From: Oscillospiraceae bacterium
GTDB taxonomy: Bacteria; Bacillota; Clostridia; Oscillospirales; Acutalibacteraceae
Length of the DNA: 64,000 nucleotides
Reading direction: 5' to 3'
Assembly: GCA_036654375.1 (NCBI GenBank)
Contig: JAVVSD010000006.1
Span: 3,084 to 67,083, forward strand
How positions within the stretch are numbered: position 1 is the first letter of the stretch; every line of letters starts with the position of its first letter. The notes beneath the pieces are model-generated. The model had not been told where the DNA came from, ran no database searches, and saw nothing but the letters and a program-made list of their open reading frames with translations. Below are positions 27,271-32,608 of the stretch, in pieces. The translations under genes and the position numbers were made by a program.

Positions 27271-27807
27271 TTGAACAGGACGGCAAAAAGAATTTGGAAT
27301 AGTATAACAACAATAATAGCAGTAGCATTTGTTGCAGTTGCAATTCTGCTTTCGGGAGTCAAGATGGTTGGGCTAACCCCTCTGTGTGTGTTAAGCGGAA
27401 GTATGGAGCCTACATATAAAACCGGTTCAATGATATATGTGAAAAAAACCGAGGCTGAAAAAATCAAAGTAAATGATGCAATAACATTTTATATGGATGA
27501 CGGGAAGACACTTGCCACGCATAGAGTCATTAAGGTTGACACAAAGAACAAGCAGTTTTATACAAAGGGTGATGCAAATAGTTTTGCTGACCCAAAAGCA
27601 GTTGAGTTTGACAGAGCTATTGGCAAGCCAGTTTTTACAATACCGTATCTTGGCTATGTCGCGTCATTTGTAACATCTCATGTTGGAAAATTCATTTCAA
27701 TTTTAGTCGCAGGGCTTTTGATTTTGTCATTCTTTGGACCTGATTTTATTAACAGGGAAAAAGAAAATAAAAATAAATTGCAGGACAAGCAACAAGCAGT
27801 GAAGTAA
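27271..27807 (+). CDS. sipW: Signal peptidase I, SipW (ER/archaeal) type
   Basis: TTG start after ggtggtga. One N-terminal TM helix, then the catalytic-Ser box VLSGSMEPTYKTGSMIYV, then THRVI and GDAN boxes, then a C-terminal TM helix. Confidence 0.8.
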   Translation: MNRTAKRIWNSITTIIAVAFVAVAILLSGVKMVGLTPLCVLSGSMEPTYKTGSMIYVKKTEAEKIKVNDAITFYMDDGKTLATHRVIKVDTKNKQFYTKGDANSFADPKAVEFDRAIGKPVFTIPYLGYVASFVTSHVGKFISILVAGLLILSFFGPDFINREKENKNKLQDKQQAVK

Positions 27808-27862
27808 CGCTTTTAAAAAAGCTTACAAATAGATAATTTATAAAATAGTGGAGGCACATAAG

Positions 27863-28444
27863 ATGAAGAAAAAAACAGTGGCAATTATTTTAGCGGTAGT
27901 TTTAGTTTGTGTTGGAGCAGTTGGCGGAACACTTGCATGGCTTAATGACCATAAAGGTGTTGAAAACACATTCACAGTAGGCGATATCAATATTGAAATC
28001 GCTCAACCAAAGTTTGATGTGAACAATGCAAAGCTTGTTCCCGGAACCAGCATTTTAGGTGACCCAACAGTAACCGTTAAAAAAGACAGTGAAGCGGCCT
28101 ATGCTCTTGTTATGGTTGAAAACAACCTAAAAGCAAATGATAAGATAATTGGTGAGCCAAACATCAGCGCGGACTGGATAGCAGTAGCAACACAGGGCAA
28201 TAAAACAATCTACAAATACAATAAAACAATATCAAGTTCAAAAATAGATACAGTTCTGACACCAGTTTTTACAGAGATTAGAATTGATGGAAGCATCACA
28301 GCAGCCGATATGGAAGGAATGGAGATAGTGAAATCAAAAACTGTAGTAATAACTGCTTATGCACATCAGGTTATAGGTCAAACAGAAGAGCAAGCAGCTG
28401 ACTCCTTTAAAACTTTACTCCAAGGCACTTGGGTTCCAGCATAA
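27863..28444 (+). CDS. Small secreted protein with a SipW-cognate signal peptide (TasA/camelysin-related subunit candidate)
   Basis: MKKKTVAIILAVVLVCVGAVGGTLAWLNDHKGVENTFTVG. The GGTLAW(L/F)xD N-terminus is the hallmark of SipW substrates. 193 aa, immediately downstream of sipW. Confidence 0.7.
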   Translation: MKKKTVAIILAVVLVCVGAVGGTLAWLNDHKGVENTFTVGDINIEIAQPKFDVNNAKLVPGTSILGDPTVTVKKDSEAAYALVMVENNLKANDKIIGEPNISADWIAVATQGNKTIYKYNKTISSSKIDTVLTPVFTEIRIDGSITAADMEGMEIVKSKTVVITAYAHQVIGQTEEQAADSFKTLLQGTWVPA

Positions 28445-28503
28445 ATAATGCAATATAGAGTATTGAAATGCAAATAGCAAAAACATTTTGGACATATTAA
28501 AAT

Positions 28504-28525
28504 AGGGAGAGAGTAATCTCTCCCT
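28504..28525 (+). promoter_or_regulatory. Perfect 9-bp stem-loop in the intercistronic gap after the first subunit gene
   Basis: agggagaga gtaa tctctccct, with no U-tract. Lies 60 nt after the stop of the 27863-28444 gene. Confidence 0.5.
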
Positions 28526-31266: not shown

Positions 31267-31268
31267 TT

Positions 31269-31832
31269 TTGAGTTTAATAAACAAGCTAAAACAAACAGG
31301 CAAGTTAAAGATGTATGCGCTCATTATATCTGCCATTTTAATTGTTACAGTTGCAATTGGCGGAACAATGGCATGGCTGTCTGACAGCCAGACAATCAAC
31401 AACAACTTTTCTGTTTCAAAGGTTAAGTGCGAAGTTAGACAGGATGTATCGGGAACATCAAGAGAAAATGTTGTTGTTGAAAACACAGGCGAAATAGACG
31501 GATTTGTTCGTGCAGTAATTGTTCTTTCATGGGTTGATTCTGAAGGTAATACAGTTCCACAGCAAGTTAAGGACAGTGACTTCACGATGGACCTCAACAG
31601 CGTTGAGTGGTTCAAAGCTTCTGACGGATTTTATTACTACAGGAGTAAACTTGTTCCACAGGGCAAAACACATAACCTTATTAACAGCTTTACTGTAAAT
31701 GACACATCAGGCACAAGCACCTTAAAACTTGAGGTTGTTGCGTCTTCAATTCAGGCAAATCCGAAAACAGCAGTTGAGGAAGCTTGGAGTGCAGTGTTGG
31801 TTGATGCAAGCGGAAATTTAATAAATAAGTGA
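31269..31832 (+). CDS. Second small secreted protein with a SipW-cognate signal peptide
   Basis: TTG start 6 nt after GGAGGG. YALIISAILIVTVAIGGTMAWLSDSQTINNNFSVS; 187 aa. Confidence 0.7.
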   Translation: MSLINKLKQTGKLKMYALIISAILIVTVAIGGTMAWLSDSQTINNNFSVSKVKCEVRQDVSGTSRENVVVENTGEIDGFVRAVIVLSWVDSEGNTVPQQVKDSDFTMDLNSVEWFKASDGFYYYRSKLVPQGKTHNLINSFTVNDTSGTSTLKLEVVASSIQANPKTAVEEAWSAVLVDASGNLINK

Positions 31833-31840
31833 GGGCGGTA

Positions 31841-32608
31841 ATGATGAAGTATAGTAAAAAGATTAAATTCATACTAAGCGGTATCATGTGCGTTGCTCTT
31901 ATGATTTCGCTTTGTTTGACAGCATTTGCAAAGACAACTTCGGAAATAACATTTGGCAAAAACTTTGTGTTCAATCCAGGCACCAGTGACTTGTTTTCAA
32001 ACTACAAGAACTTGCTTCCTGGAGAGAGCAGGTCACAGCAGATAAAGATTAATAATTCAAGCTCTGACCCCGTAAAGTTTTATCTCAAGTTTTCTTCTGC
32101 AAAGCAGGATAAAAACCTTACACAGGCGGAAAAAGACTTGGTTATGGATTTGATTAACAACAAGATTAAAATAACGGTTAAAGATTTAAACGGAAAAGAA
32201 GTTTATAGTGGAAATCTTGGTGGAACAAACAACTTGACGCAAACTACGGGTGGTAAAACCGCTGAAACATTCTTCTTAGGAGATCTTTCAGCAAACACAT
32301 CAAAAAGCTTCACAGCAGAGCTTGAGATGGACAGCTCGGTTGGCAATGAGTACCAAGGTCTTTCGGGCAATGTCACATGGATTTTCACAGCAGAACAGAA
32401 CGGCAAATCAGAGGATATAATAATTAATGACAGCAATCCTCCTCTTGCGGGCCTTCCAAATGGTGGAAATGGAACTATTGGCGGATCAGGATTAATAAAC
32501 ACAGGTGACCCAAACAGCATTGTGATGTGGAGTGTTATGCTTGTTGGAGCAGTTGGTACATTTGTATTTATTGAGCTTAAAAGAAGAAAATCCAAGAACG
32601 CAAGCTAA
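31841..32608 (+). CDS. Camelysin/TasA-like secreted protein with a C-terminal sorting-signal-like anchor
   Basis: Classical signal ending AFA|KTT. FSNYKNLLPGESRSQQIKINN resembles the F-x-NLKPGD core of TasA/CalY. The C-terminus is GLINTGD + IVMWSVMLVGAVGTFVFI + KRRKSKNAS. Confidence 0.6.
   Translation: MMKYSKKIKFILSGIMCVALMISLCLTAFAKTTSEITFGKNFVFNPGTSDLFSNYKNLLPGESRSQQIKINNSSSDPVKFYLKFSSAKQDKNLTQAEKDLVMDLINNKIKITVKDLNGKEVYSGNLGGTNNLTQTTGGKTAETFFLGDLSANTSKSFTAELEMDSSVGNEYQGLSGNVTWIFTAEQNGKSEDIIINDSNPPLAGLPNGGNGTIGGSGLINTGDPNSIVMWSVMLVGAVGTFVFIELKRRKSKNAS

Follow-up and report, generated by a model that had tools for sequence, protein, structure and literature searches.

TasA/BsaA-type fibers are recently understood, sortase-independent surface filaments of Gram-positive bacteria and archaea. 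In this work, we analyzed a window of 64,000 nucleotides from an uncultured Oscillospiraceae species (contig JAVVSD010000006.1, positions 3,084 to 67,083) and followed up a locus of five genes, here called sipW, P2, vWA (for its von Willebrand factor A domain), P4 and P5 (table 1). We consider it rather probable that this locus encodes a cell-wall-anchored heteropolymeric fiber that follows the general mechanism of BsaA and TasA, that is, donor-strand exchange. More tentatively, and with slightly more doubt than confidence, we propose from the sequences that an adhesin of the SpaC/PitA type would be fixed to this TasA/BsaA-type fiber by a C-terminal motif, W-L-x-[GD]-x5/6-N-x-F, and not by a sortase or a pilin domain. 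The locus is a member of a widespread and recently recognized family of BsaA/TasA-type fibers, in which it represents a variant in gene order, in the adhesin tail and in the loss of isopeptide residues.

The closest studied system is the bsa operon of Clostridium perfringens. This operon, sipW-bsaA-bsaB-bsaC, encodes SipW, TasA-like subunits and a vWA protein, is adjoined by srtB and, in most strains, includes one BsaB with an LPXTG motif; its authors speculated that the LPXTG-bearing BsaB anchors the fibers and wrote that the role of BsaC "is unknown" (PMC11580942, PMC7395162). They also pointed out that BsaA/TasA genes often neighbor genes for LPxTG and SpaA proteins, sortases and signal peptidases. 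The donor strand of BsaA comprises residues 28-38, with V33 and F37 buried and an isopeptide between N35 and K74 that is catalyzed by E56. In the published BsaA model, the N-terminal strand of the older subunit inserts into a newly secreted, membrane-tethered subunit.

As in bsa, a single operon here encodes its own dedicated SipW, a secreted vWA protein and several TasA-like subunits that bear SipW-type signals. The donor strand V-x-N-x-F is shared, the N-E-K triad is conserved across the wider family of the window, the P4-class proteins match the NCBI BsaA-family model, and a class B sortase gene lies nearby in C. perfringens as well as beside the cassettes of some relatives. The two systems differ in that here the vWA gene stands between subunit genes, the anchored subunit comes last and there is no two-component regulator. 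Moreover, the triad of the window subunits has lost its Glu and Lys, P4 remains below the cutoff of the BsaA model, and BsaC has not been proposed to act as a tip or to dock by a strand. The combination of parts, which the preliminary description of the locus had treated as possibly new, is thus largely known from sipW-bsaA-bsaB-bsaC with srtB and from preprints of 2025-26 on the TasA superfamily, one of which is discussed below. Five clusters of vWA proteins that were followed as candidates for BsaC (P0068, P0073, P0098, P0121 and P0177) led to other organisms, with 61% G+C and an SLH anchor or with 66% G+C, and were discarded.

TapA of Bacillus subtilis is reported to donate a strand to TasA. 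It starts or caps the fiber by this donated strand and ties it to the wall, making it a functional analogue of the roles proposed below for the vWA tail and for P5. The Bacillus systems (tapA-sipW-tasA, PMC10151520, and sipW-tasA/calY/capP of B. cereus, in which CapP is used, PMC13082335) have SipW-processed subunits of the TasA family that polymerize by donor-strand exchange and without sortase, as predicted for our locus. In contrast to our locus, they include neither a vWA adhesin nor a subunit with a sortase signal. TapA and CapP are unrelated to the proteins found here, and the proteins of the window fall far below the TasA equivalog model (NF046066; 16 bits against a cutoff of 450).

Two further systems are relevant for comparison. 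The first is the sortase-dependent pilus, as in SpaCBA of Lactobacillus rhamnosus GG and PI-2 (PitA/PitB) of Streptococcus oralis, with which our locus shares a tip made of a vWA head and a Cna-B stalk, a shaft, a wall-linked base, a full-length match of the vWA protein and, as a prediction here, a sortase for attachment of the base to the wall. However, the putative shaft and adaptor here are TasA-like, without LPXTG or pilin motif, there is no polymerizing class C sortase, and the tip has a donor-strand-like tail instead of a sorting signal. The second comprises TasA-superfamily loci (archaeal Tafi; bacterial and archaeal AbpX) with a signal peptidase I, major and minor subunits and a predicted tip, the bacterial AbpX loci including SLH or LPXTG anchors and sortases; AlphaFold 3 models of AbpX loci indicated that anchors and tips co-assemble by donor-strand complementation, with a donor strand that starts with an aromatic clamp Trp (bioRxiv 10.64898/2026.01.04.697558). 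The likeness with AbpX loci extends to the dedicated signal peptidase I, the major and minor subunits, the tip, the SLH or LPXTG anchors and the sortases. Nevertheless, AbpX belongs to another subfamily, with a 10-transmembrane signal peptidase and a DUF5305 accessory protein, and neither a vWA or SpaC-like tip nor a C-terminal mimic of the donor strand was described for it. In the literature searched, we found no description of a conserved SpaC-like tip with a donor-strand-like tail at its C-terminus, of a donor-less anchor family invisible to Pfam, or of the lock loss seen in this species.

Fiber subunits, adhesin and its proposed docking tail

Full-length homologues of the vWA protein (211 were found) were aligned, one genome per species was scanned, and the neighboring genes were classified with iterated hidden Markov models (HMMs). 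The resulting cassette counts refer to 61 complete copies among 80 species-level genomes. These copies have a common order, sipW - tasN(1-5) - [tasC] - vWA - tasC - P5, with exactly one vWA gene and one P5 gene in each. Median gaps between vWA, P4 and P5 across the family are 12-15 nt, with larger gaps after the shaft genes, and the three genes are translationally coupled. Because the cassette recurs in 61 complete copies and is identical in a second metagenome-assembled genome (MAG), the five-gene arrangement is recurrent far beyond chance. The family occurs in more than 200 species-level genomes, chiefly of Clostridia and many of them from gut samples.

The product of sipW scored 103.6 bits with TIGR02228, the model of ER/archaeal-type signal peptidase I (cutoff 51.85), and 25.6 bits with Pfam Peptidase_S26, in agreement with the W-type signal peptidase first suggested for it. 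It appears to be SipW-like rather than an orthologue of the Bacillus enzyme, since the equivalog model of the latter (NF046067) gave 109 bits against a cutoff of 190. As read from the sequence, the protein has Ser-His-Asp (S44 in SGSMEP, H84 in ATHRV and D101 in KGDAN) rather than the Ser-Lys dyad of P-type peptidases; these we take to be the catalytic residues, from what is established for SipW of B. subtilis.

P2 and P4 had been described as carrying SipW-type signals, and both scored well above the cutoff of TIGR04088 (19 bits), with 33.8 bits for P2 (GGTLAWLND) and 29.5 bits for P4 (GGTMAWLSD). The same model did not match P5 or the vWA protein, which have ordinary signal peptides. Both P2 (28.9 bits) and P4 (24.7 bits) also passed the gathering threshold (GA) of Pfam Peptidase_M73 (22.5), with matches that cover only their N-terminal 45-65 residues. 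The cutoff of the BsaA-family model TIGR04090 (60 bits) was not reached by P2 (17 bits) or P4 (43 bits, E = 4.4e-11). Among orthologues, 62 of the 65 P4-class proteins matched TIGR04090 at E <= 1e-3 (best E 3e-14), and the P2 class matched it in 31/56 cases and TIGR04088 in 49/56. Homology to the BsaA family is clear from these matches, even though the window proteins stay under the NCBI cutoff, and P2 and P4 are placed in the TasA/BsaA superfamily as proteins with SipW-type signals. P2 is likely the major shaft subunit and P4 likely an adaptor present once per fiber, translationally coupled to vWA and P5.

The predicted mature N-terminus of P2 corresponds to the donor strand, its GVENTF aligning with V33-x-N35-x-F37 of the published BsaA strand. 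More generally, mature N-termini of SipW substrates in the family follow the pattern [WY][LF]T[DA]-x5/6-N[TV]F, with two spacings (x5 and x6).

The vWA protein, which contains VIDESGSM, scored above threshold with both Pfam VWA (28.8 bits, cutoff 23.8) and VWA_2 (39.8 bits, cutoff 27). Its metal ion-dependent adhesion site (MIDAS), said to be intact in the preliminary description, is complete (DxSxS...T...D): D83, S85 and S87 are invariant and T269 and D302 at least 90% conserved in 26 homologues. The AlphaFold 2 (AF2) model had a mean predicted local distance difference test score (pLDDT) of 81, and its best full-length Foldseek matches were the sortase-pilus tip proteins PitA (7w6b, E = 7.6e-27) and SpaC (6m3y, E = 2.9e-24); a PDB search with the sequence of the protein gave no match. 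In this model, the protein takes the fold of a tip adhesin of sortase pili, but its sequence contains no LPXTG. When it was compared by hhalign with the TasA-like classes, the match was limited to the signal peptide, suggesting an adhesin without a TasA-like pilin domain.

In the AF2 model, the last folded strand ends at about residue 848, residues 849-881 are low-scoring and residues 855-881 have a pLDDT below 50. The motif of this tail, W853-L-x-G-x5-N862-x-F864, shares its pattern and both spacings (x5 and x6) with the donor strands of the subunits. A strict regular expression for it matched 40 of 68 cassette vWA tails, against 0/1074 internal windows, 0/1421 other C-termini and a mean of 0.04 in shuffled tails. 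Because this expression was written post hoc, we built an HMM from the donor strands only. At the group level, the vWA tails scored better with this HMM than shuffled tails (p = 2e-16), internal windows (3e-17) and other C-termini (3e-31). As significance was reached in the group-level test only, we refer to the tail as a partial mimic of the donor strand.

An exhaustive phmmer search with residues 745-881 of the vWA protein retrieved 168 proteins, almost always matched at the extreme C-terminus of proteins of 800-2500 aa and in alignments that typically end at F864. In 42 mutually distant representatives, the only invariant positions were four residues of the last Cna-B-like domain and the W and N of the tail, and none of the 42 had a sorting signal. 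The invariant K758 and E814 of this last domain, together with the nearly invariant N846, look like the intramolecular isopeptide triad of a Cna-B domain placed just before the tail. Heads were of the VWA type in 24 representatives, and MucBP, Listeria-Bacteroides repeats, BNR and PA14 were found as well, which suggests that adhesin heads may be interchangeable on a common docking module.

Two side observations concern this tail. The last Cna-B-like domain with a WL..N.F tail also ends long proteins whose heads are not recognizable as vWA, including cadherin-like ones, in clusters P0229-P0323. In five other loci (L010, L013, L020, L045 and L070), vWA comes before sipW, of which some of the loci have two copies, a P5-like gene lies upstream and the vWA protein has no tail motif; they may form a different subfamily with another mode of attachment.

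The predicted wall anchor and its presumed sortase

P5 had been described as a camelysin/TasA-like protein. Comparison by hhalign with TasA-like classes gave probabilities of 95-97.5% (E down to 7.6e-12), and an AF2 model from a shallow alignment (7 close relatives in two homology searches) showed a core β-sandwich (pLDDT 73-93), a disordered linker and a C-terminal transmembrane (TM) helix. The core is not recognized by Pfam. The C-terminus of P5 follows the tripartite pattern of sorting signals (LPXTG-like motif, hydrophobic span and basic tail). From its sequence, P5 thus appears to be a divergent member of the TasA-like proteins, with a sortase sorting signal at its C-terminus. The donor motif is absent from the P5 family (0/74), and P5 N-termini scored at background level with the donor-strand HMM.

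At the P5 position of the 61 complete cassettes, about 57 proteins end in a sortase signal and four have SLH domains. Several of these signals were missed by the regular expression and were read by eye; motifs of the orthologues include IVNTGD, xPxTG[D/E/Q], LIQTGQ and LPQTGL. Pfam Gram_pos_anchor matched 2/63 P5 orthologues, the window P5 not being one of them. Longer proteins at this position add Cna_B stalk domains.

A sortase gene was found within 3 kb of 20/61 cassettes, or 15/43 when the count was restricted to cassettes flanked by 3 kb or more on each side. There was none (ORF, i.e. open reading frame, with TLxTC) in the 64-kb window or beside the cassettes of the two species that share its gene neighborhood, L001 and L005, and a search by regular expression for hidden sortase-like ORFs near cassettes without an HMM match gave no credible candidate. 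The sortases sampled beside TasA-type cassettes were of class B (TIGR03064) or of a 195-aa unclassified type associated with LIQTGQ/LLKTGQ anchors. Because sorting signals at the P5 position are so common (about 57/61), adjacent sortases accompany 20/61 cassettes and the other two-thirds equally lack one, P5 is best read as the putative substrate of a cognate sortase, whose gene is assumed to lie in another part of the genome. The label "sortase-less", given to the locus at first, holds locally but not for the system, and the idea that the sortase had been replaced by SipW was dropped; the action of SipW is confined to the removal of signal peptides. No gene for a TapA-like protein, a sortase or a regulator was found in the window, as had been stated for the locus, and its likeness to a pilus operon with tip, shaft and base has gained from the structural matches to PitA and SpaC, the TasA/BsaA-family subunits and the P5 wall anchor.

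The likeness of the vWA protein to the sortase-pilus tips PitA and SpaC, the sorting signal of P5 and the sortases adjacent to some relatives could also be expected of an ordinary pilus cluster, or a fragment of one, in which a class C sortase polymerizes pilins by LPXTG-Lys transpeptidation and the sortase gene has been lost or lies elsewhere. We rejected this explanation, which we regard as extremely improbable, on the grounds that there is no sortase in the window and that P2, P4 and the vWA protein, unlike P5, have no sorting signal. Moreover, the shaft candidates are SipW-signal proteins of the TasA/BsaA family and not pilins, and srtB is dispensable for the polymerization of BsaA in C. 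perfringens. Adjacent sortases, present in about one-third of the cassettes, included none of class C in the TasA-type cassettes sampled; the single class C sortase found (L074) lies beside a locus without TasA-like genes, in which the vWA protein itself ends in a sorting signal with TM segment and basic tail. The sampled TasA-type cassettes thus show no association with a class C sortase, which had been named at the outset as what would make the locus a piece of an ordinary sortase pilus.

As a separate observation, small sortases (about 195-220 aa) are encoded in overlap with P5-type genes, or directly next to them, at L032:14571-15155 and L038:14048-14635, and also in L050, L051, L055, L062, L073 and L079. 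They match only the generic model TIGR01076, without a defined class, and the neighboring P5 signals are LIQTGQ/LLKTGQ, often with Cna_B stalks. These sortases and anchors may be a dedicated, unclassified sortase-substrate pair.

Proposed assembly, its alternatives and the lock residues

The distribution of the motif, combined with the published model of BsaA growth from the base, led us to a model of a fiber with polarity that leaves no strand and no groove unassigned. By the precedent of BsaA and TasA, cleavage by SipW after ..GGT[LM]A would expose W-L-x-D-x5-N-x-F, and the exposed strand would enter the β-sandwich of the next, more cell-proximal subunit, so that the fiber would grow from its base. 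We infer the strand-groove pairings of the vWA tail, P2, P4 and P5 as follows. The vWA protein would act as donor only, its disordered tail WLCGEAVSSNAF occupying the groove left open in the first (distal) subunit, which would make the adhesin the tip. P2 as shaft and P4 as adaptor would both donate and accept strands. P5, without a donor motif, would be acceptor only and take the last strand, as would the donor-less TasA-like subunit, anchored by sortase or SLH domains, at the base of the fibers in the family. P5 would stay tethered through its C-terminal TM segment up to its linkage to peptidoglycan by a class B sortase, the gene of which would lie elsewhere in the genome; this linkage would end growth and anchor the fiber. 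Polymerization would then proceed by donor-strand exchange, and a sortase would serve solely to attach the base to the wall. In most species, an Asn-Lys isopeptide would subsequently lock the docked tail peptide. Such a fiber would amount to a hybrid pilus of defined polarity whose docking tail is modular, this tail being found with MucBP, Listeria-Bacteroides-repeat, BNR and PA14 heads as well.

Several observations weigh against this picture. Tested individually with the donor-strand HMM among all non-subunit ORFs, single vWA tails were not significant (best 9.5 bits, E = 0.36). The tails share W-L...N-x-F and its spacing with the donor strands, but not the T-x-G part, and within loci the x5/x6 spacing of the tail did not co-vary with any subunit class. 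Regarding the base, P5 remained just under the GA of Peptidase_M73 (21.9 against 22.5 bits, the match covering residues 57-192), and Foldseek found for it only generic β-sandwich and pilin matches (FimH, FimA, PapD-like; E ~3e-4; TM-score <= 0.3) and no TasA. The assignment of P5 to the TasA-like fold consequently rests on sequence profiles, and its earlier description is upheld by hhalign and not by Pfam or Foldseek. Its LINTGD is a non-canonical sorting motif, and the sortase itself is missing from the window and from the neighborhood of the syntenic L005 cassette. Finally, work on C. perfringens found BsaC free, as a secreted protein of 70 kDa, and BsaA polymerized there without BsaC, BsaB or SrtB.

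The last two results would also fit a secreted biofilm-matrix system, in which P2 and/or P4 form matrix fibers that are largely shed, the vWA protein is a separate soluble matrix or adhesion factor and P5 acts independently in the wall, tethering some fibers at most; the conserved vWA tail would then serve another role, such as a secretion or export signal. BsaA polymers of C. perfringens are mainly extracellular, the export of monomeric BsaC depends on type IV pilus proteins, and the likeness between tail and donor strand is only partial, all of which agree with such a system. Nevertheless, we consider it unlikely. A single vWA protein and a single anchored P5 are strictly retained and tightly coupled in the 61 cassettes, and the anchor modules (sortase signal or SLH) are swapped at a fixed position. 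In addition, the vWA protein has the modeled fold of a tip adhesin, its tail keeps the aromatic clamp and the Asn-x-Phe of donor strands, and the C. perfringens work was done with strain 13, in which a rearrangement has removed the bsaB that bears LPXTG. We thus retain the wall-anchored fiber as the preferred reading.

The N-E-K triad is kept in 106 of 112 P2-class and 59 of 65 P4-class subunits; a third class, encoded just upstream of vWA, has NEK in 28/39 and NDK in another 8. In most relatives, this triad could lock each strand-groove joint with an Asn-Lys isopeptide. The species studied here departs from the rule, with N/Q/G in P2 (Q53 and G71 in place of the acceptor Glu and Lys) and N/Q/R in P4 (Q58 and R65), and the same substitutions are present in the second MAG. 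Among cassettes of this gene order, the window is the only one in which both P2 and P4 are without the acceptor residues; a few architecturally different or incomplete loci are also without them. Since both subunits have lost Glu and Lys, the fiber of this species would be held non-covalently, like that of B. subtilis TasA, which functions without the triad.

An alternative explanation for these losses is that the operon is decaying or silent in this species, the missing lock residues and the lack of a nearby sortase being signs of relaxed selection. The exclusive loss in both P2 and P4, the degenerate P4 triads of L001 (S-E-K) and L005 (N-G-Q) and the 64 kb without a sortase speak for it. On the other hand, the species is represented by a second, independent MAG that has the same cassette at about 99.4% nucleotide identity; all five ORFs are intact in both MAGs, which differ by 19 synonymous and 12 non-synonymous changes (rough ratio of non-synonymous to synonymous rates, dN/dS, ~0.2). 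The five genes are intact and under purifying selection between these two MAGs. Furthermore, synteny is maintained in three species, the changes of E to Q and K to R preserve structure, TasA works without the triad, and two-thirds of the cassettes have no adjacent sortase. Decay of the operon is, in our judgment, very improbable.

Boundaries, relatives and significance

The five co-directional ORFs of the preliminary description (27271-32608) were all present in the ORF list with the same coordinates (table 1). They are tightly packed, with 2 nt between vWA and P4 and with P4 and P5 overlapping or nearly abutting; the gap between P2 and vWA has 176 nt. The order of rplQ, the cassette and the gene of a solute-binding protein (SBP) is common to the window species, L001 and L005.

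Table 1. Positions of the locus, its parts and its flanking features in the 64,000-nucleotide window.
Feature	Position	Strand	Description
rplQ intrinsic terminator	26675..26712	+	12-bp stem (26675-26702) and T-run; upstream locus boundary; from terminator scan
AT-rich leader/promoter region	26713..27270	+	~560 bp; 25-32% G+C
sipW	27271..27807	+	178 aa; ER/archaeal-type signal peptidase I; SGSMEPTYKTGS; C-terminal TM segment
P2	27863..28444	+	193 aa; predicted SipW-processed TasA/BsaA-like subunit; ORF opens at 27848, conserved MKKK start at 27863; predicted mature N-terminus WLNDHKGVENTFTVG
G+C-rich hairpin	28503..28526	+	10 bp, stable; in the 176-nt P2-vWA gap; no T-run after it
vWA adhesin	28621..31266	+	881 aa; ordinary signal peptide, MIDAS-bearing vWA head, Cna-B-like stalk domains; no sorting signal, no TM segment
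vWA C-terminal tail	31165..31263	+	Residues 849-881; motif W853-L-C-G-EAVSS-N862-A-F864 at nt 31177-31212
P4	31269..31832	+	187 aa; predicted SipW-processed BsaA-family subunit; mature N-terminus WLSDSQTINNNFSVS
P5	31841..32608	+	255 aa; putative basal anchor subunit; ORF opens at 31829, conserved start at 31841; ordinary signal peptide (..AFA/KTT, cut at the slash), β-sandwich core, disordered linker
P5 cell-wall sorting signal	32492..32605	+	LINTGD, ~23-aa hydrophobic segment, KRRKSK
Operon terminator	32636..32689	+	16-17-bp hairpin followed by T-run; read from the sequence
SBP_bac_5 lipoprotein gene	32826-34475	-	Convergent; ORF list, and Pfam on the identical neighbor in L089

The terminator of rplQ is conserved in L001 and L005, and alignment of the leader with these two species showed conserved blocks only at the terminator and in the ~40 nt before sipW. 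A search of the leader for riboswitches with Rfam at permissive thresholds gave noise only, and a scan for sigma-70 promoters found no more sites than in shuffled sequence. Rfam noise matches of the hairpin type were also obtained at 32625-32692, in the area of the operon terminator. L005 has about 300 bp more leader between rplQ and sipW, and this additional part contains several imperfect direct repeats (TTACGGGCGGTTTA..., L005:160-480) that are absent from the window and from L001.

The gap between P2 and vWA contains a G+C-rich hairpin with a predicted folding energy of -38.5 kcal/mol (z = -3.3), which none of 200 shuffles equaled. As an attenuator or as a site of mRNA processing, this hairpin may set the ratio of shaft to tip. 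RNase Y has been reported to regulate transcript levels of the bsa operon of C. perfringens (PMC11580942, PMC7395162).

Other members of the family show variation in organism, anchor and copy number. At L084:6955-14214, and also in L085 and L088, the cassette belongs to an often-sampled organism with ~61% G+C, with 908 and 732 members in its vWA clusters. At the P5 position, this type has a protein of 435 aa with SLH domains instead of a sortase signal, the same swap being found in L014, L060 and L067. Another cassette (L086:8078-13992) is from an organism with 66% G+C and has the anchor signal APRTGD and no adjacent sortase; its vWA protein was found on 93 contigs, including one of 2.9 Mb. 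Judging from its G+C content and neighboring genes, this cassette may lie outside the Clostridia. At L043:78-9562, a second tasC-P5 pair is located directly upstream of a complete cassette, both anchors ending in LPQTGL, and is preceded by the apparent end of another vWA gene at the contig edge.

Taken together, the family gives a coherent and testable answer to how TasA/BsaA fibers are capped and anchored and to what their vWA protein does. If the proposed assembly is true, these fibers would be a hybrid between two known principles of Gram-positive pili, and the presence of srtB next to the bsa operon would be explained. The tail would then be a portable docking device for the display of adhesins on self-assembling fibers, and the family would comprise numerous adhesion organelles that lack annotation, many of which belong to gut commensals. 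The locus described here, a natural variant without lock residues (E to Q; K to R or G), would be useful for asking what the isopeptide contributes to such fibers.

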